Shown: positions 5,147-61,733 of the stretch, piece after piece
Position numbering within the stretch: the first letter of the stretch is position 1
How the letters are laid out: each line of letters starts with the position of its first letter
Assembly (NCBI GenBank): GCA_020347625.1
Contig: CP070735.1
Span: 2,628,902 to 2,691,010 of the forward strand
Direction of reading: 5' to 3'
Source: Deltaproteobacteria bacterium
Lineage (GTDB): Bacteria > Desulfobacterota > Syntrophobacteria > BM002
Length of the DNA: 62,109 nucleotides
The notes under the pieces: generated by a model
Databases searched by the model: none
Told to the model about the DNA's origin: nothing
What the model saw: the letters and a program-made list of their open reading frames with translations, nothing else
Program-made: the position numbers and the translations under genes

Positions 5147-5250
5147 CGTTTAGCCTGTTATGCCGGTTAAGCCGGCTAAGCCAGTTAGATGCTTTAGACT
5201 CGTCGACTTTAACTGGCTAAACCGACAAAACTGACAGAACTGGCCAAACA
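5147..5250. repeat. heptamer-array hairpin element inside the acd-etfB gap
   Basis: GCCGGTTAAGCCGGCTAAGCCAGTTAG...TAACTGGCTAAACCGACAAAACTGACAGAACTGGCC. Confidence 0.6.
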
Positions 5251-7276: not shown

Positions 7277-7487
7277 AAATCCGAAATTAAATTTAGGAAT
7301 TGGGGAATTAAGGAATTGAGGGATTGGACACGAATTCATTAAATTGTCTGTGCAAGCTTTTCTAATTCCTGAATCCCTTAATTCCAGAATTTCTCAATTT
7401 ATTTGGGTGTTTCGGATTTCGACCCGCCCGCCTCGCCTGAACGAGCAGGCTCGCGATGGCGGGCAGGTATTCGGATTTCGGATTTGC
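7277..7487. repeat. nested heptamer-array hairpin element (etfA-fabG gap)
   Basis: AAATCCG AAATTAA ATTTAGG AATTGGG GAATTAA GGAATTG...AATTCCT GAATCCC TTAATTC...CGGATTT. A second hairpin is CCCGCCCGCC...GGCGGGC. Confidence 0.8.
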
Positions 7488-9723: not shown

Positions 9724-10155
9724 ATGAAAGTGGTTATTGGTAGTGATCATGCAGGCTTTTCCATGAAAACGCACGTCAGGACCTTGCTGGAGAACATGGG
9801 ACACACTGTGGAGGATGTGGGTTGCTACAGTGAAGAATCTGTGGACTACCCAGTCTACGGCAAGGCGGTGGCAACGGGTGTTGCCAGCGGCGAATTTCCC
9901 AAGGGGATTCTCATCTGTGGCTCAGGGCAGGGTATGGCAATGATTGCCAACCGTTTTGTTGGCGTGCGGGCAGCCTTGTGCAACGATCTTTTTAGTGCTG
10001 TTCTGAGCAGGCGGCACAACGACGCCAATCTCCTGGTTATGGGGGGAAGGCTGATCGGAGCCGACTTGGCAGGGGAAATTGTTGCAACCTGGCTGAACAC
10101 AGAGTTTGATGGCGGCCGCCACCAGGGCAGGGTAGCGCAGCTGGATGAAATCTGA
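9724..10155 (+). CDS. rpiB: ribose-5-phosphate isomerase B
   Basis: MKVVIGSDHAGF..CGSGQGM. The ATG at 9724 was chosen because the ORF-track start 9475 overlaps fabF. Confidence 0.88.
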   Translation: MKVVIGSDHAGFSMKTHVRTLLENMGHTVEDVGCYSEESVDYPVYGKAVATGVASGEFPKGILICGSGQGMAMIANRFVGVRAALCNDLFSAVLSRRHNDANLLVMGGRLIGADLAGEIVATWLNTEFDGGRHQGRVAQLDEI

Positions 10156-10156
10156 T

Positions 10157-10320
10157 CATTTGGCATTTGGCATTTCGCGTTTCAAATCTCAAAACTGCAA
10201 TCAAAGAATACAGTAGCCAGTAGTCAAGGGCGAATTACTCCTGTTTGCTTTTCTCCTGAATTCTGACTCCTGACTCCTCACTCTATGCCCCATGCTCCAT
10301 GCCTTCTCACATCTCAAAAA
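10157..10320. repeat. composite heptamer-array element (copy A)
   Basis: CATTTGG x2.., GTAGCCA GTAGTCA, core AGGGCGAATTACTCCTGTTTGC, CTGACTC x2, CCATGCT CCATGCC. Confidence 0.85.
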
Positions 10321-10424
10321 GCATTTATCGTTGGACATTTTTATTTCTTTTGGCTATCCTCACTAACCGGCTATCCCTAGACAGGGTTCACTACGGTTGA
10401 ATTACACCAGAAGATGTTACGGAC

Positions 10425-11684
10425 ATGATAGATCTGGAGAGAATAGACCCGCAGATTGCAGAATCCATCCGGTTGGAGGAGCAAAGGCAGCTACAGAGGC
10501 TGGAACTCATTGCCTCGGAAAATTTTGCCAGTCCGGCAGTCAGGCAAGCACAGGCCAGCGTCCTGACCAACAAATATGCGGAGGGCTATCCCGGCCACCG
10601 ATATTATGGTGGCTGTGAATTTGTGGATACAGCGGAAAGTTTAGCGATTGAGCGGGCGAAAGAGTTGTTTGCTGCCGAATATGCCAACGTTCAACCGCAT
10701 TCCGGTTCACAGGCAAACATGGCAGTTTTTTTCTCGATCTTACAGCCGGGCGACACCATTATGGGTATGGACCTGCGCCATGGGGGCCATCTGACCCACG
10801 GCAGCCCCGTGAATTTTTCCGGCCGACTTTTCAGAGTGATATCCTACGGGGTAAATCGGCAGACGGAAACCATAGACATGGAGGCGCTTGAACGACTGGC
10901 TAAAGAGCAGCGACCCAAGCTGGTCATCGCCGGGGCAAGCAGCTACCCCCGGGCGATAAACTTTGCTTTTTTTCAAAGCGTCTGTGATGAGATTGGCGCC
11001 TATCTGATGGTGGATATGGCACACATTGCTGGTTTGGTGGCTGCTGGAGTCCATCCAAGTCCCATTCCACACAGCGACTTTGTGACCTCCACCACCCACA
11101 AGACCCTCAGGGGACCCAGGGGAGGTCTGATACTCGCCAGAGAGGGCCACGCCGACAAACTCAACAAGCAGATCTTTCCCGGTATACAGGGTGGACCACT
11201 CATGCACGTCATCGCTGCCAAAGCCGTGGCTTTCAAGGAGGCTCTTACTGCCGAGTTCCGCTCTTACCAAAAACAAATTGTGGTTAATGCCAAACGGCTG
11301 GCAGCGGAGTTGTTGGACAGAGGTTTTCGTCTGGTCTCCGGAGGAACCGATAATCACATACTACTCGTTGACCTGCGGGGGAAGGGACTTACCGGAGCGC
11401 AAGCCGAGGTCATTTTGGACAAGGCTTGGATCACGGTAAACAAGAACAGCATTCCATTCGATCCGGAAAAGCCTGCTGTAACAAGTGGTATCCGAGTCGG
11501 GACTCCGGCGGTGACCACGCGGGGCATGAAAGAGAATGATATGGCTGTAATAGCCAAGTTTATCCACCAGGCCCTCGAAGCTGGTGATGATGCTGCCGTG
11601 CTGGAGCAACTGAGCCGCCAGGTTGGCGATTTCTGTTCGCAGTTCCCTTTACACAAACCCGTATACGAGATGGAGGCGGCTTGA
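10425..11684 (+). CDS. glyA: serine hydroxymethyltransferase
   Basis: SHMT over full length ([19 protein letters not shown]). Confidence 0.95.
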
Positions 11685-13748: not shown

Positions 13749-13783
13749 GATAGTCCGGACAGAATGGGCGAGCAAGCGCATCT

Positions 13784-13910
13784 GGCATAGGGCATAGAGC
13801 ATAGAGCATGGGGTTCAAACATTTTAAAATTTGAAATTATTGGCCCTGGCTACTGACTACTGCTTTCTATTAATTCGCGTTACGCCTTGAGCCCTGTGCC
13901 TCTAGCCTAA
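13784..13910. repeat. composite heptamer-array element (copy C)
   Basis: GGCATAG GGCATAG AGCATAG AGCATGG...TGGCTAC TGACTAC...TAATTCGC. Confidence 0.8.
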
Positions 13911-14719: not shown

Positions 14720-15952
14720 ATGCCAACCGCAAAAATTGCTGAGGCCCTGGAAGAGATCAGAGAAGGGAAGATGGTTATCCTGGTGGATGATGAGGACCGG
14801 GAAAACGAGGGTGATCTCTGCATGGCTGCCGAAAAGGCGACCCCAGAGGCCATAAACTTTATGGCAAGGTATGGAAGAGGATTGATCTGTCTTTCCTTGA
14901 CAGAGGAAAAGGTTGAGAAACTTCAGCTACCCATGATGGTTTCAAACAATGAGTCTAGGTTCGGGACCGCCTTCACCGTTTCAATCGAGGCTAGACTTGG
15001 GGTCACCACCGGAATCTCTGCTGCTGATCGGGCAACCACCATTCTGACTGCGGTGGACCCCGGCGCAAGACCAGAGGATCTGGTGAGTCCGGGACATGTC
15101 TTCCCCCTTCGGGCTCGAAAGGGCGGTGTATTGGTGCGTACCGGACAGACTGAGGGTTCGGTTGATCTAGCCAGGTTGGCAGGATTGAAGCCTGCCGGAG
15201 TCATTTGCGAGGTTATGAAAGACGATGGCACCATGGCGAGAATGCCTGACTTGGAAATATTTGCCAAGGAGCACGGACTCAAGATCGTTACTATTGCAGA
15301 TATTATCGAGTACAGGATGCGCCACGAGAGCTTTGTTGACCGTGCAGCAGTCACCATGCTGCCCACCATTCATGGCGGTGAATTTCAGGCCATTGTCTAT
15401 ACAAACGACATCGATCCCAGCCAGCACATTGCCCTGGTGAAGGGTGAGCTCAACCCGGATGAAGAGATATTGGTCCGCGTCCACTCAGAATGCCTCACCG
15501 GCGACAGTTTGGGCTCGCTTCGCTGTGATTGTGGAGACCAGTTGCATCGTGCCATGGAGATGGTTAGCGATGAAGGTAAGGGGGTTATCCTTTACATAAC
15601 CAACCAGGAAGGTCGTGGCATAGGTCTCGCCAATAAACTCAAGTCGTATGCTCTCCAGGATCAAGGAAAAGATACGGTGGAGGCCAACGAGGCCTTGGGA
15701 TTCAAGGCTGATTTAAGAGAATACGGGATAGGTGCTCAAATCTTGGTGGACCTTGGGGTCAGAAAGATGCGGCTTATGACCAATAATCCCAAGAAGATCG
15801 TTGGACTGGAAGGTTACGGTATCACCATAACCGAGCGGGTGCCCATCGAGATTCAGCCCAACCCCTGTAACCTTGACTATCTGAAAACTAAATGTTCAAA
15901 GATGGGCCACCTCATGGACCTGACCCAGCAGAAGGAGAAGGAGAATTACTGA
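14720..15952 (+). CDS. ribBA: bifunctional DHBP synthase / GTP cyclohydrolase II
   Basis: RENEGDL (RibB half). CxxxxxxxxxxCxC zinc site and QEGRGIGL (RibA half). Confidence 0.93.
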
Positions 15953-20131: not shown

Positions 20132-20312
20132 CACGGAGAGACGGAGACACGACGACAACAAGACGCGGCGACGCGATGACACGGCGACACGGAGAGATTA
20201 CTAAAGCATAAGAAAGTTCTTTTCGAAGAGACAGTAATGAATCAGGATGGAAAAATCATAGAAGTTTTTCTTTTTCACCGCGTCTCCGTTTCCCCGCGCC
20301 CCCGTTTCGTTC
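20132..20312. repeat. heptamer-array hairpin element overlapping the lptE ORF start
   Basis: ACGGAGA GACGGAG ACACGAC...CGGCGAC ACGGAGA on the left. CGTCTCC GTTTCCC CGCGCCC CCGTTTC on the right. Confidence 0.75.
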
Positions 20313-23575: not shown

Positions 23576-23700
23576 GCATGGGGCATAGGGCATGGGGCAT
23601 AGGGCAAATTCAGAAATCCTTCGCTCTAATCCCTTTGCTTTTTCGCTTTACGCTATGCGCTATGCGCTATGCGACCCTCAATCTGCAATCTGAAATCCCT
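23576..23700. repeat. heptamer-array hairpin element
   Basis: GCATGGG GCATAGG GCATGGG GCATAGG GCAAATTCAGAAATCCTTC...CTATGCG x3 ACCCTCA ATCTGCA ATCTGAA. Confidence 0.85.
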
Positions 23701-24046: not shown

Positions 24047-24122
24047 GGCGGCATGGCCAAGTGGCTAAGGCAACGGTCTGCAAAACCGTTATTCCCCGGT
24101 TCGAATCCGGGTGCCGCCTCCA
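24047..24122 (+). tRNA. tRNA-Cys (anticodon GCA)
   Basis: GGCGGCATGGCCAAGTGGCTAAGGC-ACGGT-CTGCAAA-ACCGT..GGTTCGAATCCGGGTGCCGCCTCCA. Confidence 0.9.
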
Positions 24123-25002: not shown

Positions 25003-25545
25003 ATGCAGTGGTCCATCAGGGACAGGCAAATAGTTCTGCTGCAAGGAGATATCACCGAGATGGATACAGATGCCATCGTCAACGCTGCCAACAAGGACTT
25101 GGTTCTGGGAGCAGGTGTAGCTGGCGCCATACGCACCAAAGGAGGCCCTAGTATCCAAGAAGAGTGTAACCGGATAGGTGGTGCTCCGGTGGGAGGGGCA
25201 GCAATAACCACCGGTGGTAATCTCACGGCTAGATATGTAATCCATGCAGTTGGTCCCCGAATGGGGGAGGGTGATGAGGACCGGAAACTGGCGGATGCCA
25301 CCCGGAACAGCTTGAAACTTGCCCATGAAAAAGGGTTGGCAAGCATTGCTTTCCCAGCCATTAGCACCGGGATATTCGGATTTCCTAAAGACCGATGCGC
25401 CAGGATCATGCTTTCAACTGTGGCTGAAAGCTTGAAAAGCGAGGATTTAACTCTAAAACAAGTGGTGTTCTGCCTTTGGGGCGAGGAGACATTGCAGATA
25501 TTTGATGCAGCTGCTAGGGAGTTATTTTCAGGGGAAGATGGGTGA
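25003..25545 (+). CDS. macro domain protein (O-acetyl-ADP-ribose deacetylase, YmdB-like)
   Basis: GDITEMDTDAIVNAAN, GAGVAGAI and AFPAISTGIFGFP motifs. GGGAGGA RBS. Confidence 0.88.
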   Translation: MQWSIRDRQIVLLQGDITEMDTDAIVNAANKDLVLGAGVAGAIRTKGGPSIQEECNRIGGAPVGGAAITTGGNLTARYVIHAVGPRMGEGDEDRKLADATRNSLKLAHEKGLASIAFPAISTGIFGFPKDRCARIMLSTVAESLKSEDLTLKQVVFCLWGEETLQIFDAAARELFSGEDG

Positions 25546-25547
25546 GG

Positions 25548-25945
25548 GGGGATTGTGGATTGCGGATTGAGGGTCGCAGAGAGCAGAGCGCATAGCGCAT
25601 AGCGACAAAGCATGGGGCATGGGGCATGGAGCATGGAGCATAGAGTAAGGAATAAGGAGTGAGGAGTCGGGAGTCAGAATCCAGGAGACAAGCAAACAAG
25701 AGTAATTCGCCCTTAACTACTGGCTACTGACTACTGACTACTGGATTCTTTGATGTAGGATGTGGGATTGCGGATTGCAGATTTCGGATTTGGGAATTCA
25801 GGGAGTATTGTACGTCATTATGTTCCGCTGTCAGTTTTTGTAAATGCCTGCGTGCACAGCGTTTTTTGAGCAGCCGGCTGCTAGCTGTCCGCTGCCTGCT
25901 GGGCAAAACGTCTTACTGCCTACTATCTACTGTCTACTGTCTACT
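25548..25945. repeat. composite heptamer-array element (copy B, about 400 nt)
   Basis: GGATTG units, GCATAGC x2, CATGGGG/CATGGAG x4, TAAGGAA.., core GAGTAATTCGCCC, GCTACTG ACTACTG x2, GGATTGC x2, later CTGCCTG../CTACTGT x2. Confidence 0.85.
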
Positions 25946-26312
25946 TACCCACGCCCGTGAGTTCCGCGAACTGCTCCTGGGAGATCTGCGAGATGCTTTT
26001 GCCAATGCTAAATATGAGTGAGGATTCTGTGCGCGGCTCGAATACTTTACCGACCTGAATTACGGGATCTCTAAGCCAGAGGAAGTAATCCTCGAAGAAG
26101 CAAAGAGCTAGATCAACATTTTCAGTATCCGCGAGCATTTCGGCAAAGGCCAGGTTTCTAATAAGAGCTCTGCCCCTAAGTTGTTTTTGTCCCTTTTTGT
26201 CCAACCAGACTTCGAAAGTGGCATTTCGCAGTGGCAATCGATTCTTTTTCGTGTCAGCGTCTACTAGATAAGCTTGGTCAACTTCGTAGAGTCCTTCTGG
26301 TAAATCGATCAT
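25941..26312 (-). CDS. hypothetical protein
   Basis: ORF with a GGAGAG RBS before the ATG at 26312 (alternative start 26357). No family recognised. Confidence 0.45.
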   Translation of the reverse strand: MIDLPEGLYEVDQAYLVDADTKKNRLPLRNATFEVWLDKKGQKQLRGRALIRNLAFAEMLADTENVDLALCFFEDYFLWLRDPVIQVGKVFEPRTESSLIFSIGKSISQISQEQFAELTGVGK

Positions 26313-26399
26313 TGTTGTCTCTCCAAATTTAGGCAGTGGTAATTTCGCATTTTTCATTTACCATTCTTTTGAAACATTGTTATAAGTTCCACCGCCTCG

Positions 26400-26528
26400 A
26401 TCTGCAATGTTAAATGCGAAATGAGAAATACTATCGCCGCGTCACCGCGTCACCGTATCAATACGCTACGCCTGGTGCACAGTTCCTAGTGCCTAGTGCC
26501 TAGTGCTTACTGCGCAAAGCATAGAGCG
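26400..26528. repeat. heptamer arrays (several families in series)
   Basis: ATCTGCA ATGTTAA ATGCGAA ATGAGAA; CGCGTCA CCGCGTC ACC; TCCTAGT GCCTAGT GCCTAGT GCTTACT. Confidence 0.8.
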
Positions 26529-26529
26529 C

Positions 26530-27333
26530 TTACGCCGAGACGTTACCACCCAATGTCTCTTTAATAATCTTCAGCAAGAATTCGTGTAGAGCCTGATTGC
26601 CGGCAACCACATCTCCTGTCCAGATGTGGTCTCCACCTCCGGTGAAATCCGAGATAGATCCACCCGCTTCCTTCACCAATAGGTGCCCTGCAGCAATGTC
26701 CCAGGGACTGAGGCCGAGCTCCCAGTATCCTTCACAGCGACCGCAGGCCACATAAGCAAGGTCAAGAGCGGCTGCCCCACTCCGGCGGATATCGCTCACC
26801 CGTTTGAACACCTGAGTGAATCCCTTGAGATAGACGGACAGAATAGATTTTTCTCTCCAGGGAAAAGCGGTGGCCACCAGTGCTTCTTTTAGCTTCTGGC
26901 GAGTGGAAACCGCTATGGGGTGTCCATTGAGGGTTGCGCCTTGACCCTTCTGAGCAAAAAAAAGCTCATTTCGACAAGGATCATAAACCGCAGCCAAGAC
27001 CACTGCACCCTTATGCTCCAAGGCGATGCTTACTGCAAAAACCGGGAAGCCATGGATGAAGTTGGTGGTTCCGTCCAATGGGTCCACCAGCCAGCGGGTC
27101 ACGCTCTGGCCGGGAATTGTTCTGTCTTCTTCTGCTAGAATGTCATGTTCCGGATGGCGACTTCGGATTAGCCGGATAATTGCCTCTTGTGCTGCCAGGT
27201 CCGCCTCAGTTACGAAATCGAAGCTGCCCTTGGACTGCACATGTAAAGTTTTAAACCTGTTGTGGTAATCCAGAAGAATACCGCCAGCCTCCTTGACACA
27301 GTCCACAAGAGTCTTTGTTAGTTGCTCGTTCAT
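26530..27333 (-). CDS. suhB: inositol monophosphatase family protein (SuhB-like)
   Basis: WLVDPLDGTTNF and AAGHLLVKEAGG motifs. Confidence 0.88.
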   Translation of the reverse strand: MNEQLTKTLVDCVKEAGGILLDYHNRFKTLHVQSKGSFDFVTEADLAAQEAIIRLIRSRHPEHDILAEEDRTIPGQSVTRWLVDPLDGTTNFIHGFPVFAVSIALEHKGAVVLAAVYDPCRNELFFAQKGQGATLNGHPIAVSTRQKLKEALVATAFPWREKSILSVYLKGFTQVFKRVSDIRRSGAAALDLAYVACGRCEGYWELGLSPWDIAAGHLLVKEAGGSISDFTGGGDHIWTGDVVAGNQALHEFLLKIIKETLGGNVSA

Positions 27334-32165: not shown

Positions 32166-32166
32166 G

Positions 32167-32216
32167 GGCATAGAGCATAGGGCATAGGGCAAATTCAAAA
32201 TCCTTCACCCTATGCT
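32167..32216. repeat. short heptamer-array element
   Basis: GGCATAG AGCATAG GGCATAG GGCAAATTCAAAATCCTTC..CCTATGC. Shares the GCATAGGGCAAATTCA(G)AAATCCTTC unit with 23576..23700. Confidence 0.75.
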
Positions 32217-39203: not shown

Positions 39204-39225
39204 GCACTCTATATTGAGACGGGTA

Positions 39226-39424
39226 GTTGTACGTTAAATGTTATTAGTTATACGTTATTAGTTATACGTTATACGTTATGAGTCATACCTTATTCGGTTT
39301 TCACTGCATCTGCAGCGGAAGTCAGTCGTCGAAGAATTCCCCGATCATCAGACTTACTTTTCCCGTTTAACTAATAACTAATAACTAATAACTAATAACT
39401 CTATCTTGCCTAGTGCCTAGTTTT
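39226..39424. repeat. heptamer-array hairpin element (GXGXG-VWA gap)
   Basis: GTTGTAC GTTAAAT GTTATTA GTTATAC GTTATTA GTTATAC GTTATAC GTTATGA on the left. TAACTAA x4-5 then CTAGTGC on the right. Confidence 0.85.
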
Positions 39425-42855: not shown

Positions 42856-42915
42856 ACAAGGGCAGATAGGTCAAGGCAAAATCTAGATGGTTTCCCTGAA
42901 TATGTCAATTGTTAG

Positions 42916-42960
42916 GTGAATCCGCAATCCGGTATCCGCAATCCAAAATCGATTAATAAT
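42916..42960. repeat. heptamer array
   Basis: GTGAATC CGCAATC CGGTATC CGCAATC CAAAATC. Confidence 0.75.
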
Positions 42961-44130: not shown

Positions 44131-44348
44131 GATGGAGTAATGGAGTGACTAGAAATTCCAAATAACAAATCACAAATCCCAAACAAATCACAATGACCAA
44201 AATTCGAAATTCCAAACCTGTTTTTTGTTTTGGTCATTTGGTATTGGAATTTGAGATTTGTTTGTAATTTGGTGCTTGGAGTTTGGGATTTCATTAACTC
44301 CAACATTCCATCATTCCAGTATTCCACTATTCCAGTACTGCAGTACTC
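44131..44348. repeat. about 220-nt nested heptamer hairpin element (copy S)
   Basis: GGAGT-type outer units. Inner arms CAAATAA CAAATCA CAAATCC CAAACAA... facing ...TTTGAGA TTTGTTT GTAATTT. Positions 44227-44292 are the exact reverse complement of 61575-61640. Confidence 0.9.
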
Positions 44349-44352
44349 TATT

Positions 44353-45038: not shown

Positions 45039-45128
45039 AACTAGGCACTAGGAACTATGCACTAGGCACTAAAATGAGCAACCAAATAAGATTTTCTGTG
45101 CTTAGTGCTTAGTGTTTAGTGTCCAGTA
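45039..45128. repeat. heptamer-array hairpin element
   Basis: AACTAGG CACTAGG AACTATG CACTAGG CACTAAA, a loop, then TGCTTAG TGCTTAG TGTTTAG TGTCCAG. Confidence 0.85.
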
Positions 45129-52561: not shown

Positions 52562-52715
52562 TTGTAGATTTAAGATTGTAAATTTAAGATTTAAGATTGG
52601 GGAATCCTTCTTTGGTGCTTTTCTTTCTGATAGCTATCTGAAGTAACCTCAGCATTAGGTTACAGGTAACAAATTACCTAAATCCGCAATCCGCAATCTG
52701 TAATCCGGAATCGAG
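52561..52715. repeat. heptamer-array hairpin element
   Basis: TGTAGAT TTAAGAT TGTAAAT TTAAGAT TTAAGAT on the left. CCTAAAT CCGCAAT CCGCAAT CTGTAAT CCGGAAT on the right. Confidence 0.8.
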
Positions 52716-55660: not shown

Positions 55661-56667
55661 AACTGCCTCCGTGTTATGCTCGAGCAATCCTTCGAATCCA
55701 GAGGAATGTTTTCCGCGCCCGAATTCGTTGCAAATAATTTAAGAATAGATTTACACTTGTCGACCCCTGGCCTACACGATTCACGAAAAGAGAAAGACAA
55801 ACTGTTTAGTAATCTCACCCGGAGATAATAGATTACTTTATGCCCTTATAATGGAATCAGGATAAATTCCCCGAGGAATCTCCCACCCCAAAAAGAATGA
55901 CGAGATTCTTCCCAGCTACGCTTGTCAGAATGACATCCTAATTCTGACATTTGCATATAAACACTAATTGGATCGAATTTATAGCCTTTAAGTAGCTATT
56001 TTATGTATCAGTGAAATGCTCGTTTTTGTATGTCAATATCGTGTTAAAAATCACTGCTGACTAAACAGTTAAATTATATCGATTAATTTGTAATTATCAT
56101 TAAATCATACTTGTTGCGTAGTTTATTGTGATGACAGGTCACCATTTGTTTATATGTCATAATTGACATAACTGTTTATTCTTGACAGTGAGATGGAATG
56201 TGCTATTTTTGTAGCCAAGATATTGCCGTAATTGGATTATTGGTTCATTTATTCACCTTATCCCTACTTCAAAGCGCCCCGAGCGCCAAGCATTCTGTGA
56301 AGCAGAGAATTCCTGAATTAGTGCGGTAACTAGATCGGACAGATGCTAAGGAAACTAATACTTTGCTTCATCGTTATTCCTTGAGTTGCCTACCTGGACT
56401 GAATTGGAGGGCAGAACGTATTCTGCTCTGGCGGCGAAGTTTGCATCCTATTCCTTTTTTTAGGTCTGATGCCTGCGTTCCTGAAACGGAATTGATAGCG
56501 AGTCAAAGGATCGACGGTTGCAACGGCAGGCGCAGGATTAAATGAACGGATAGTCAGAGGTGTTTGTCCACCTCTGACAAGGGAAAGGAGGTGTTAAGAG
56601 TCAATAACTGACACGAAGCAGAGTTGAATTGCACCGATGTTTCATGAAAGGAGGGCAAATTAGACCC

Positions 56668-59600
56668 ATGCAGATCACGAGAAGAGATTTCATGAAGATC
56701 TCTGGTGCAGCAGTAGGTGGCCTTGCTCTCGGTGGATTGGGTTTCAACCTGACACCGGTCAAGGCACACGCCAAGGCGCTCAAAATTGCCTGGGCGAAGG
56801 AAACTACCACCATCTGCCCCTACTGCGCCGTTGGTTGTGGCATTATTGCACACACCGCCAGAGATGGGTCGGGCAAGCTTATTAACACCGAGGGCGATCC
56901 AGACCACCCCATCAACCAGGGTTCCCTATGCGCCAAGGGTGCAGCCCTTTATCAACTTGTCACTGAGGACAGCAGGGTCAAGACGGTTCTCTACCGAGCC
57001 CCATACAGTAGCAAGTGGGAAAGGAAATCCTGGGATTGGGCCCTGAGCGAGATTGCCAAGCGGGTGAAGCGAAGCCGTGATGCCAGCTTCACAGCCAAGA
57101 ACAGCAAGGGCCAGCTGGTCAATCGGACCAATGGTATCGCCCACGTGGGTAGCGCCGCCCTTGATAACGAGGAATGTTGGGCGCTTCAGGCGATGATGCG
57201 TGCCCTGGGCCTGGTTTACATTGAACATCAGGCCCGTATCTGACACAGCGCCACTGTTGCGGCTCTGGCAGAGTCGTTCGGACGCGGCGCAATGACCAAT
57301 CATTGGATTGACATCGGCAACAGCGACTGCATCCTGGTGATGGGAAGCAACGCTGCCGAAAACCATCCCATCTCCATGAAATGGGTTATGAAAGCCATGG
57401 AGAATGGGGCAACCCTTCTAAGTGTTGATCCCCGTTTTACCCGGACCTCAGCCAAGGCGGATTTTTACACGGCTTTGCGTTCAGGGACCGACATCGCCTT
57501 CTTGGGCGGGATGATCAACTACATTATCGAAAATGAACTCTTTTTCAGCGAGTACCTGGCCTGGTACACCAACGCCAGTTTCATTCTGGGCGGCAAGTAC
57601 GGGTTCGAAGATGGCCTCTTTGCAGGTTACAACCCGCAAACCCGCTCCTACGACAAGTCCTACTGGGCTTTTGAAAGGGAGCCGAGCGGTATTCCCAAAA
57701 AGGACGTCACTCTCAGGCACCCGCGTTGCGTGTTCCAGCAGCTGAAGAAGCATTTTTCCCGTTACACCCTTGATAAAGTCTCGGCCATTACCGGCACACC
57801 CGAAGAGGATCTGCTCAAAGTCTACAAGACCTATGCGGCCTCAGGTGAAAAGGGCAAGGCCGCCACAATCATGTACGCCATGGGCTGGACTCAGCACACT
57901 GTAGGCGTCCAGAACATTCGGGCCATGGCCATTATCCAGTTGCTTCTTGGCAACATGGGAGTGGCCGGCGGCGGGGTGAATGCGCTTCGCGGTGAGTCCA
58001 ATGTCCAGGGCTCCACGGATCACTGCCTGCTCTGGCACATCTGGCCCGGCTACCTGAAGACACCCAGGTCATCCAACGTTTCGTTGGAAGCTTACAACAA
58101 GAAGTGGACTCCGAAGACCAGCGATCCACTCAGCGCCAACTGGTGGGGTAATTATCCCAAGTATTCGGTGAGTTTTCTCAAGTCCATGTTCGGTGTAAAT
58201 GCCACTCAGAAGACCGATTTCGGCTACGACTGGTTGCCCAAGGCAGATGATGGGAAAACATACTCGTGGCTGGATCTGTTTGATGCCATGTACAGAGGTG
58301 AATTCACCGGCTTCTTTGCCTGGGGCCAGAATCCGGCCTGCTCCGGCGCCAATGCCAACAAGAACCGCAAGGCATTTGCCAAGCTGGACTGGATGGTAAA
58401 CGTCAACCTGTTTGATAACGAAACCGGCTCGTTCTGGTATGGCCCGGGAATGGACCCCAAGAAGATCAAGACCGAGGTCTTCTTCCTGCCAGCTGCTGCT
58501 TCCGTGGAAAAGGAAGGCTCCATTACCAACAGTGGTCGCTGGAGTCAGTGGCGTTACAAGGCGACGGATGCGCCCGGAGATGCCCGACCTGACGGCGATA
58601 TCATGGTAGAGCTTTTCGATAAGATTCGGGCGCTTTACCGGAGAAGGAGAGGGGTTTTCCCAACGCCCATCCTGAACCTCAAGTGGGACTATACCACCAA
58701 CGGTAAGTTCGATGCCCACAAGGTGGCAAAGGAGATCAACGGCTACTTTCAGCGGGATGTCACCGTCAAGGGCAAGAACTTCAAGGCGGGGACCTTGGTT
58801 CCCAGTTTCGCCTTCCTGCAGGCGGACGGCTCCACCTCATCGGGTAACTGGCTCTACTGCCAGAGTTACACTGAAAAGGGGAATATGGCAGCGCGCCGCA
58901 GCACCGTGGATAAATCCGGTATCGGTCTCTACTCTGAGTGGTCCTGGTGCTGGCCGGTGAACCGTCGGATTATCTACAACCGGGCCTCGGTGAATCGAAG
59001 AGGCGTGCCCTGGGATCAGGAGCATCCGGTGATTCGCTGGACCGGGGAGAAATGGGCAGGTGATGTGCCTGATGGCGGCTGGCCGCCCATGCTCGACGCC
59101 GACGGCAAGCTGAACCCCAAGACCAAGTACCCCTTCATTATGAAGCCGGAAGGCCATGCTCATGTGTTCGGACCGGGGCGCGCTGACGGGCCCTTTCCCG
59201 AGCACTACGAGCCGCTGGAGTGTCCCATCGAGAAGAACTTGATGAGTGCGCAGTTCGTCAATCCAACCATCAAGGAATTCACCACAGCCGCAGACGCCCG
59301 GGCCACCTGCGATCCACGCTACCCAATAGTTGCCTCGACCTACCGGGTCACCGAGCACTGGCAGACCGGTGTTTTGACCCGCTGGCAGCCTTGGCTCTTG
59401 GAAGCGCAGCCCCAGTCGTTCTGCGAGATGAGTGAAGAGCTAGGAAAGCTAAGGGGCATCCGGAACGGTGACAAGGTTATTGTGGAGTCGGCACGTGGAA
59501 AAGTGGAAGCGGTGGCAATTGTGACCAAACGCTTCCGACCCTTCAAGATTGCCGGTGCCACGATTCATCAAGTGGGATTGCCCTGGTGTTATGGCTGGGT

Positions 59601-59712
59601 CACGCCCAAGGACGGCGGTGACAGTTCAAACTTGCTCACTCCTTCCATCGGTGATCCCAATACGTTGATCCCGGAAACCAAGGCCTTTATGGTCAATGTC
59701 AGGAAGGCATAG
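56668..59712 (+). CDS. fdnG: formate dehydrogenase catalytic subunit, selenocysteine-containing, Tat-exported
   Basis: Tat motif TRRDFMK. CPYCAVGCG [4Fe-4S] motif. In-frame TGA at 57241-57243 in the context HQARI-U-HSATVAALAESFGRGAMTN. ORFs 56629..57243 and 57292..59712 share one frame. Confidence 0.9.
57244..57275 (+). promoter_or_regulatory. candidate SECIS stem-loop just 3' of the UGA
   Basis: CUGUU (57254-57258) can pair with GGCAG (57267-57271). Only hand-folded and weak. Confidence 0.3.
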
Positions 59713-61537: not shown

Positions 61538-61733
61538 GAGAGTACTACTGAGTGGCTGGAGTGTTGGAGTCTGTGAAATCCCAAACTCCAAGCACCAAAT
61601 TACAAACAAATCTCAAATTCCAATACCAAATGACCAAAACAGTTTTGGAATTTTGAATTTTGGTCATTGTGATTTGTTTGATATTTGATATTTGAGATTT
61701 GGAATTTCTATTATTTCACTAATCCGTTACTCC
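61538..61733. repeat. about 200-nt nested heptamer hairpin element (copy T, inverted relative to S)
   Basis: 61575-61640 is the exact reverse complement of 44227-44292. The other arm and the outer GGAGT/ACTCC units are also collinear with copy S. Confidence 0.9.

Follow-up and report, generated by a model that had tools for sequence, protein, structure and literature searches.

It was found that the intergenic DNA of a 62,109-nt chromosomal stretch of an uncultured deltaproteobacterium (contig CP070735.1 of assembly GCA_020347625.1; hereafter the window) carries many short arrays of 7-nt units. A composite element present near 10.2 kb and 25.6 kb, which consists of such arrays on either side of a short unique core, is one instance of this class. 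Copies of the composite in the window, as well as alleles of the arrays in other strains, change almost only by whole 7-nt units, and they do so over the times in which strains diverge. At 0.1–1.3% nucleotide divergence, about a tenth of the arrays have changed, and the same unit types and modules occur at many loci. It is probable that the arrays are long simple-sequence heptamer arrays of the type called short tandemly repeated repetitive (STRR) sequences, that the composite is a dispersed mosaic repeat, and that all of these are slowly varying filler resembling variable-number tandem repeats (VNTRs), not reversible switches.

Two copies of a composite element

The reverse complement of positions 10183–10303 (copy A) is collinear with positions 25622–25792 on the plus strand (copy B), as revealed by a local alignment of the reverse complement of 10140–10330 with 25540–25830 (score 154.5). 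In both copies, GCATGG/GCATAG units are followed by AGTGAGG AGTCRGG AGTCAGA, by the core CAGGAGAnAAGCAAACAnGAGTAATTCGCCCTT, by nACTAC TGGCTAC, and by TTCTTTGAT; the homology extends past TTCTTTGAT into GATTGCAG(A/T)TTT..GATTTG. There are only three mismatches across a 74-nt block that contains the 33-nt unique core. A repeat search gave arms of 92 nt with 86% complementarity, and a 25-nt pattern taken from the core occurs exactly twice in the window but never in 100 shuffled sequences. Thus, the match between the two copies is far beyond chance. The gaps in the alignment are 14, 14, and 21 nt in length, all of which are multiples of 7. The original prediction, made by a model that saw only the sequence, had stated that the reverse complement of 10200–10303 is collinear with 25624–25754 and that the 25.6-kb copy carries two extra insertions of 14 nt. 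The alignment agrees with both statements and with the predicted order of the modules, although the homology is longer than was stated and the third gap, of 21 nt, had been missed.

Copy A occupies the greater part of the 269-nt stretch that separates the rpiB gene (stop codon at 10155) from the glyA gene, where Tandem Repeats Finder (TRF) reported period-7 arrays at 10157–10175, 10253–10283, and 10285–10303. Copy B is located in a 395-nt gap (25546–25940) between two convergent genes, a Macro-domain gene (25003–25545, plus strand) and a hypothetical gene (25941–26357, minus strand). This gap amounts to about 40 units in the window. In summary, the composite is a dispersed mosaic repeat of about 120–170 bp, in which imperfect 7-nt arrays lie on either side of a 33-nt unique core. 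The window holds two copies in opposite orientation, and a third occurs at the ribD-ribE locus in other strains. The positions of the modules are listed in Table 1.

Two further possibilities were tried and rejected. A single 7-nt register throughout 25.5–25.8 kb does not hold, since the phase of the GCAT units slips by 1 nt between 25597 and 25610. A suspected fourth relative at 41.6 kb has only the 15-mer CAGAATTCAGGAGAA in common with the composite.

Unit number in other strains

By exact look-up of the flanking proteins, I collected 43 contigs from Logan runs, two metagenomes of the Joint Genome Institute (JGI), and one metagenome-assembled genome (MAG) at NCBI (GCA_975970745.1). All of these contigs come from other samples and are 98.7–100% identical to the window, with a density of single-nucleotide polymorphisms (SNPs) of 0.29% in coding and 0.55% in non-coding DNA. 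Twelve distinct indels were found in the arrays (Table 1), nine of 7 nt and three of 14 nt, and several of them lie in or beside the two composite copies. The coding sequence had no indels among the 43 contigs. The gain and loss of whole units that had been predicted is therefore supported, since all three gaps between the paralogous copies and all 12 array indels between samples are multiples of 7; indels of arbitrary length, which would speak against it, did not appear in the arrays when these related strains were compared. The only indels of other lengths were two of 1 nt, one at 25546 in a G-run and one at 24065 outside arrays, and a 59-nt difference at 7411. One JGI contig (L091) covers the whole of copy B, with two SNPs and no indel inside the copy.

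How often do the arrays change? Counting each array that a contig fully spans, the unit number differs in 9 of 86 array-by-contig comparisons; about nine-tenths of the arrays are unchanged at 0.1–1.3% nucleotide divergence. Within arrays there are about 2.5 indels per kb, as compared with two or three indels in about 15 kb of other non-coding DNA. Thus, the arrays are clearly indel-prone. Roughly estimated, an array acquires indels a few tens of times as fast as a site acquires substitutions, which is orders of magnitude below the rate of phase-variable tracts.

The ends of the short-read contigs are not placed at random. As many as 25 of 86 ends lie at, or no more than 31 nt from, a heptamer array, four times the expected share of 7.4% (p = 2e-9). 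With such breaks at the arrays, most public contigs are 1–6 kb in length, and the MAGs of this lineage will be fragmented at intergenic regions.

Two of the indels of other lengths deserve a short description. The G-run after the stop codon of the Macro-domain gene (25543–25549) has six G residues in the window and five in contig L089. No other indel at an array departs from multiples of 7, and a homopolymer sequencing error could explain this one. The 59-nt difference concerns a GC-rich hairpin of 48 nt at 7422–7469 (ACCCGCCCGCC...GGCGGGCAGGTA), unique in the window, that is nested in a TTCGGAT array between direct repeats of 11 nt, TTCGGATTTCG (context 7411–7480). Contig L083 (JGI, 98.7% identical) lacks exactly the hairpin and one of the 11-nt repeats. 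The difference could be due to a small insertion element or to a deletion between the direct repeats.

Heptamer arrays across the window

The period of 7 nt stands out in the intergenic DNA of the whole window. With a strict threshold, period-7 runs cover 919 nt, corresponding to 6.8% of the non-coding bases versus 0.13% of the coding bases, whereas each of the other periods from 4 to 12 covers 0–238 nt at the same threshold and no more than 1.1% of the non-coding bases. With a lenient threshold, 53 runs with a total of 2,068 nt were found, or about 16% of the non-coding DNA, and 49 of these runs are intergenic. TRF likewise reported about 60 rows with a period of 7 or 14. Arrays are present in 23 of the 53 intergenic gaps and make up 22% of the bases in convergent gaps, 15% in tandem gaps, and 15% in divergent gaps. 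Many of them start at, or a few bases from, a stop or start codon. There is no bias in their orientation relative to the genes (13 versus 12 downstream of stop codons, 15 versus 16 upstream of start codons).

The arrays are short and imperfect, with two to five non-identical units. The unit types include GCATRGR, GGATTGC, CTACTGA, GTTATAC, GTGCCTA, and AATGMGA, with dozens of variants. Identical canonical units are found at separate loci in 21 pairs, while 3.9 pairs are expected, and unit pairs with at most one mismatch number 157, while 73 ± 8.6 are expected. These results indicate that the composite belongs to a class of intergenic heptanucleotide arrays that extends over the whole window, in which it is not special.

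A few arrangements depart from simple direct arrays of 7-nt units. At 1213–1668 and 39225–39404, (GTTATAC)n faces (GTATAAC/TAACTAA)n as inverted repeats that are 88–190 nt apart. These sites lie beside tRNA-Glu/Gln and between a pair of minus-strand genes. The TAACTAA array at 39368–39400, with 4.7 units, is perfect and is one base off the TAACTGA unit of Beggiatoaceae. Arrays with a period of 8 nt were found at 7290–7326, 20132–20195, and 44299–44334, and arrays with a period of 9 nt at 5148–5242; the process is not strictly heptameric.

Shared modules and the ribD-ribE locus

Several modules made of arrays are shared between separate loci of the window (Table 1). A second composite family, which has two copies in the window, is about 88–95% identical over about 175 nt. 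It is built as a long imperfect palindrome with a unique center, one half made of (CAAATNN)n arrays and the other of (NNATTTG)n arrays. The gaps between its copies sum to 7 nt (3 + 4) in one place and are 7 nt in another, with an ambiguous stretch in a period-8 array.

The ribD-ribE gap at 13.8 kb had been proposed to contain a third relative of the composite, at 13784–13910. This proposal holds in part. The segment does have GCATAG and CTACTG arrays in common with the composite. However, its alignment score against the 25.6-kb region is 42.5, no better than the scores of 35–44 obtained with other array-bearing intergenic regions and far from that of the 10-kb copy, and the 8-mer TAATTCGC, which had been taken for the core, is at chance level (three occurrences in the window; 15% of the shuffled sequences reach three). 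The locus looks different in another strain. Contig L094 maps to this locus, with a coding flank 99.75% identical to the window, and starts with GCAAACAAGAGTAATTCGCCCTTAACTACTTGCTACTGACTACTG, which is the 3′ part of the core followed by the CTACTG array. Its first 30 nt are those of copy B, and the first difference is at base 31. A contig assembled with k = 31 should start there if the upstream sequence is shared with copy B. L094 has this part of the core where the window is AT-rich, and the next 40 nt are 78% identical to the window. Thus, the strain of L094 carries an intact third copy at the 13.8-kb locus, and the version in the window is degenerate or replaced.

The ribD-ribE gap thus occurs as two haplotypes, one with the intact composite core and the other with an AT-rich replacement (L094 positions 1–70 versus window positions 13818–13885). 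Toward the 99.75%-identical flank there is a sharp boundary at 13883/13884, at which three other Logan contigs start exactly. These starts suggest that single samples contain both alleles or a repeat. At the 10-kb locus, contigs L083 and L086 depart sharply from the window right after an array.

Is the core found elsewhere? The pattern GCAAACANGAGTAATTCGCCC gave no match in genome and metagenome contig collections, which lack the relevant samples or short contigs, as the presence of the core in L091 illustrates. An approximate search for the core over all fetched loci gave matches in orthologous contigs only.

Table 1. Positions of the modules, sites, shared segments, and strain differences, numbered from the first base of the window
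Feature	Position	Strand	Contig	Basis or remark
Composite copy A	10183–10303	−		Between the rpiB stop codon (10155) and the glyA promoter-like site; local alignment and repeat search
CATTTSG-type array beginning at the rpiB stop codon	10157–10190	+		TRF; outside the shared composite; varies between strains
Non-repetitive core of copy A, 33 nt (CAGGAGAAAAGCAAACAGGAGTAATTCGCCCTT on the minus strand)	10226–10258	−		Pattern occurs twice in the window, 0 expected
Sigma-70-like site TGGACA-17-TATCCT	10332–10360	+		Consensus match only; the only one upstream of glyA; 0.6 expected in shuffled sequences
Third member, degenerate or replaced: GCATAG array, AT-rich middle instead of the core, GCCC, CTACTG array	13776–13868	+		ribD-ribE gap; alignment
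Array module left of copy B (GGATTGY, GCAGAGM, GCATAGC, GCATGGG)	25540–25621	+		Separate module; inverted copy at 23631–23699, 69 nt at 83%; alignment score 78
Composite copy B	25622–25792	+		In the 395-nt convergent gap
Extra units TAAGGAA TAAGGAG, 14 nt, not in copy A	25646–25659	+		Alignment gap 1
Non-repetitive core of copy B, 33 nt (CAGGAGACAAGCAAACAAGAGTAATTCGCCCTT)	25682–25714	+		Identical in L091
Extra units TGACTAC TGACTAC, 14 nt, not in copy A	25728–25741	+		Alignment gap 2, drawn as 12 + 2
Extra units GATGTAG GATGTGG GATTGCG, 21 nt, not in copy A	25752–25772	+		Alignment gap 3
Shared module	23631–23699 and 25549–25617			Inverted
Shared module	23581–23615 and 32166–32200
Shared module	42912–42952 and 52674–52714
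Shared module	26470–26497 and 45040–45067
Second composite family, about 200 nt	44134–44350 and 61539–61733			Inverted orientation
Array indel, +7 nt	10184		L083	CATTTSG array, six units versus five in the window
Array indel, +7 nt	about 10214		L086	Versus window
Array indel, +7 nt	10283		L002	Versus window
Array indel, −14 nt	20868		L117	Versus window
Array indel, −7 nt	22981		L110	Versus window
Array indel, −14 nt	23576		L109	Versus window
Array indel, −7 nt	23651		L109	Versus window
Array indel, −7 nt	25550		L091 (JGI), L109 (NCBI MAG)	GGATTGT unit missing
Array indel, −7 nt	25610		L089	One GCATGGG unit missing
Array indel, −14 nt	26481		L091	Versus window
Array indel, −7 nt	26485		L092, L093 (two Logan runs)	Versus window
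Array indel, −7 nt	45109		L108	Versus window

Orthologous gaps in more distant relatives

Two closed genomes, CP070692 (L124) and CP070689 (L125), are syntenic with the window at 84% LeuS identity and do not have the composite. The gap between the Macro-domain gene and the next open reading frame (ORF) is 2 nt in these relatives versus 395 nt in the window; in L125 (20583–20604), both stop codons lie inside a three-unit GTGCCTA array. The same unit type is also present upstream of the inositol monophosphatase gene, both in L125 and in the window. The rpiB-glyA gap is 153 nt in the relatives versus 269 nt in the window, and in L124 it starts with TCATTTA TCATTTC TCGCTTT, at the same place as the CATTTSG array of the window. 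Since the same unit types are found at the same places in relatives at 84% identity, the unit types at these sites are old. The array content per 22.6 kb is about 250–290 nt in the relatives versus 752 nt in the window, and the large mosaic regions are a more recent expansion in the lineage of the window.

Comparison with known repeat systems

Mazel and colleagues are said to have introduced the name STRR in 1990, for units such as CCCCAGT, TTGGTCA, and CAACAGT. It has been reported that heptameric repeats are over-represented and vary in length between close relatives, and polymerase slippage was proposed (PMC4679880, PMC4692102). Long simple sequence repeats (SSRs) in general (Mrazek 2007, as it is cited in PMC4692102) belong to the same comparison, and heptameric ones are over-represented in intergenic DNA. 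Mixed assemblages of heptamers in nearly identical intergenic regions, together with assembly breaks, are known from Beggiatoaceae, Microcystis, and some Bacteroidetes (PMC4679880).

One close likeness is with the STRR sequences of Calothrix, Nostoc, and Anabaena and the mixed arrays of Microcystis, which also consist of tandem 7-nt units at many dispersed intergenic loci, with mixed unit types and a function that has at most been suggested to be regulatory (PMC4692102, PMC4679880). On the other hand, the lineage studied here is an anaerobic deltaproteobacterium, the unit sequences are different, and the arrays flank a dispersed 33-nt core. Under a strict definition, STRR sequences have the canonical units and belong to a heterocystous cyanobacterium, and the window falls outside it. 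The TAACTGA repeats of marine Beggiatoaceae, some Cyanobacteria, and Bacteroidetes (MacGregor 2015, PMC4679880) are intergenic direct repeats in sets of two to six and in larger assemblages, with contig breaks, just as found here. However, that system has one dominant unit, mostly just upstream of start codons and in the forward direction, whereas the window has dozens of variants in all classes of gaps and no orientation bias. TAACTGA itself occurs in the window as a single reverse-complemented unit at 1239, which together with the related unit type TAACTAA at 39368–39400 is all that the window has of this system. The GGGAATC and GGGGA(T/C)T heptamers of Xanthomonas and Nostoc (Rehm et al. 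2015, PMC4692102) share the intergenic excess, the variation in length and sequence at the same gene pair, the inverted arrangements, and the proposed slippage by 7 nt. In contrast, those repeats are of one type that forms G-quadruplexes, which most of the units in the window cannot form, and the window also shows module exchange between loci.

The likeness to other classes is weaker. Contingency loci of host-adapted pathogens also change in length by whole units, but their tracts are long and perfect, belong to surface or restriction-modification genes (within the coding region or the promoter spacer), and switch at high frequency. The arrays of the window are short and imperfect and were not found in a coding region or between promoter elements, and the 9 of 86 differing comparisons, as an indirect measure, argue for a low rate of change. 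Bacterial interspersed mosaic elements (BIMEs), repetitive extragenic palindromic (REP) sequences, and miniature inverted-repeat transposable elements (MITEs) are short, dispersed, and intergenic, are mosaics of a limited set of modules, and often lie just after stop codons, like the composite. In contrast, the modules of the window are direct heptamer arrays, which are not palindromic, and have neither terminal inverted repeats, nor target-site duplications, nor folds beyond those of shuffled sequences. The imperfect palindromic units of about 35–40 nt with stable hairpins that define REP sequences and BIMEs are absent, and so are the terminal inverted repeats, target-site duplications, and defined ends of MITEs. 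Rather, the window shows the marks of the generic class of STRR-like long heptanucleotide SSRs, namely an excess of the 7-nt period, an intergenic and dispersed distribution, and a variable number of units. These repeats fit a known class of intergenic heptamer repeats in a new lineage. The array-bounded replacement of whole modules between strains is a modestly new aspect.

Possible origin and role of the arrays

Unit indels are probably generated by replication slippage or by unequal exchange between neighboring near-identical units. Modules probably spread and are replaced between loci by ectopic recombination with junctions inside the arrays, not by transposition. The arrays would then be largely neutral, VNTR-like, non-coding filler; any function would more likely be generic, for instance as a platform for binding or as a spacer within untranslated regions, than dependent on copy number.

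Some points weigh against this explanation. The unit types recur across loci and have been kept at orthologous positions in relatives whose LeuS is 84% identical, which is not expected from purely local neutral slippage; this recurrence and persistence hint at a function or at continual homogenization. Of the 14 arrays no more than 30 nt downstream of a stop codon (for example those at 15949, 25540, 42917, 52556, and 52657, of the GGATTGY type and others), 11 are rich in G+T on the sense strand of the upstream gene; the subset was chosen post hoc, with p of about 0.06. Since the contigs break at arrays, the longest and possibly most variable arrays are under-sampled, and the rate of change may be underestimated. 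The tails of L083 and L086 at the 10-kb locus are contig ends and possibly assembly tips, and are less secure than L094. Finally, the survey covers 62 kb of the genome, within which the composite family was counted.

A bolder idea, which I regard as rather unlikely, is that the arrays serve as recombination junctions, so that whole intergenic cassettes including the 33-nt core are copied or swapped between unrelated loci within a species by ectopic conversion, while a protein that reads heptads keeps the recurrent units. If this is true, strains whose genes are 99.7% identical would differ in the untranslated-region or upstream modules of housekeeping operons such as rpiB-glyA and ribD-ribE. 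It would be a modular, array-mediated diversification of regulatory DNA, distinct from transposition and from classical phase variation.

Alternatively, the arrays may be binding platforms, on which a single-stranded nucleic acid binder (such as a cold-shock, S1, or CsrA-like protein) or a DNA-binding protein reads one unit per protein module; within untranslated regions, this would tune termination, translation, or the stability of mRNA, and the core would be a specific site. Such binders were proposed by MacGregor for the TAACTGA repeats, and CspB binds with one protein per heptamer (PMC4679880). The starts of many arrays at or near stop and start codons, the G+T-rich arrays near stop codons, and the units on the plus strand of copy B, which mostly end in GGA, are consistent with this idea, and the recurrence of particular heptamers far above chance, with their persistence at orthologous positions, may favor it a little. 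However, the arrays have no overall orientation bias, and the two composite copies face opposite ways relative to the upstream genes. The unit sequences are very diverse, and the unit number and even whole modules are dispensable between strains. Nothing identifies a binder, and I consider a binding platform unlikely.

Could the composite be a non-autonomous MITE-like element, moved as a unit by a transposase encoded elsewhere, with heptamer arrays as part of its ends? It is true that the copies are dispersed in both orientations with unrelated flanks, that strains differ in whether the element is present at the 13.8-kb locus, and perhaps also at the 10-kb one, that it is missing from the orthologous gaps of the relatives, and that there is a second dispersed family at 44134–44350 and 61539–61733. 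Yet neither terminal inverted repeats nor a target-site duplication was found at the ends of the homology (10183/25792 and 10303/25622), where the flanks are other heptamer modules. The homology fades into arrays that are common to other modules, and the left flank of copy B is a different module, the one shared with 23631–23699. No transposase gene was identified among the window proteins that were scanned. The ATCTCAAAA repeat that flanks copy A was considered as a target-site duplication and rejected, because its left copy is within the homology with copy B. Movement as a MITE is thus quite improbable.

The original prediction went further and suggested a contingency-type switch, in which a high-frequency slipped-strand change in unit number would toggle nearby promoters or RNA structures and give phenotypic variants within a population. 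The polymorphism in unit number between samples is real. Copy A ends 29 nt upstream of the −35-like hexamer of the promoter-like site at 10332–10360, and a step of 7 nt would rotate a site upstream by about 240 degrees relative to the promoter. In Nostoc, moreover, deletion of heptamer repeats upstream of recF and recO changed the expression of reporters (bioRxiv 10.1101/2022.06.06.494920). Nevertheless, about 90% of the spanned arrays have the same unit number among the strains, the arrays are imperfect with few units, and none was found in a promoter spacer or coding region; copy A itself ends outside the spacer of the glyA site. Convergent gaps, which are not expected to hold a promoter, have the highest density of arrays, and one of them contains copy B. 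Two overlapping promoter-like sites on the minus strand (25844–25807) do face copy B, but 0.9 ± 0.9 are found in shuffled sequences. The flanking genes (rpiB, glyA, and the rib operon) have housekeeping roles and are not surface or restriction-modification genes. Folding gave nothing more stable than shuffled sequences, with z values of −1.4 to +0.4 for each copy on each strand and of +0.8 and −0.2 for the whole convergent gap. With 9 of 86 comparisons differing, short imperfect arrays, a convergent-gap placement, no promoter-spacer position, and no special fold, the suggestion of a switch is not borne out, and I regard it as very improbable.

An artefact of assembly or sequencing, in which unit differences come from mis-assembled repeats, is hardly credible: short-read contigs do break at arrays, and sequencing errors could account for the two indels of 1 nt, including the one in a G-run, but some variants were obtained again from independent samples and with independent assemblers (−7 nt at 25550 both in a JGI contig and in the NCBI MAG; −7 nt at 26485 in two Logan runs) and their junctions are anchored by unique flanks within single 31-mers, the repeated stretches being shorter than k = 31, so that assembly collapse is not the cause, and the difference between the paralogous copies exists inside one contiguous window.

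A role as RNA was considered separately. An RNA gene or RNA structure found no support in the folds or in Rfam and was rejected; the AGTCAGG/CTGACTA hairpin in the minimum-energy fold is no better than in shuffled sequences. In the rpiB-glyA gap and the 25.6-kb convergent gap, no intrinsic terminators were found. In searches with Rfam models, only tRNAs passed the gathering score in the window; there was nothing with E ≤ 1 at 25480–25960, and one chance-level match to a eukaryotic snoRNA model (E = 0.68) at 10100–10450. Rho-utilization sites, which would give a C-rich and G-poor strand downstream of genes, were also rejected, since the arrays downstream of stop codons show no bias in G-C skew (13 versus 12).

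Gene content and host

The G+C content of the window is 50.6%. Its housekeeping genes are arranged as fabG-fabF-rpiB-glyA-nrdR-ribD-ribE-ribBA-ribH-nusB-leuS-lptE, an order that I take to be typical of Desulfobacterota. Further genes encode the formate dehydrogenase-N alpha subunit, a nickel superoxide dismutase, and sigma-54 activators. The nearest named LeuS sequences are from "MAG: Syntrophobacterales bacterium" (97%, partial) and "Deltaproteobacteria bacterium" (83–86%), with roughly 60 LeuS relatives in the latter range of identity; the host is an uncultured Syntrophobacterales-like deltaproteobacterium. A GlyA peptide pattern was tried for finding relatives and rejected, because it is universally conserved, with a best identity of 65% among the matches listed. 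The inositol monophosphatase (26530–27333) gave no record in the protein look-up. The gene for the formate dehydrogenase-N alpha subunit (ORFs at 56629–57243 and 57292–59712) was matched by its family model only from position 212 on, with the separate ORF just upstream, and it appears to be interrupted by an in-frame stop codon, probably a selenocysteine TGA.

Implications

The status of the composite as a candidate switch is not compelling. Instead, the element raises questions that are testable at defined loci, namely why the unit is 7 nt in length, what makes particular units recur, and whether loci exchange modules. In practice, short-read assemblies of this organism are broken at the arrays, which could serve as VNTR markers for strain tracking. 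The 12 array indels and the three gaps between paralogues, without exception, are unusually clean evidence from natural populations for exact steps of 7 nt. These results add an anaerobic, uncultured Syntrophobacterales-like lineage to the scattered bacteria that have intergenic heptamer arrays.

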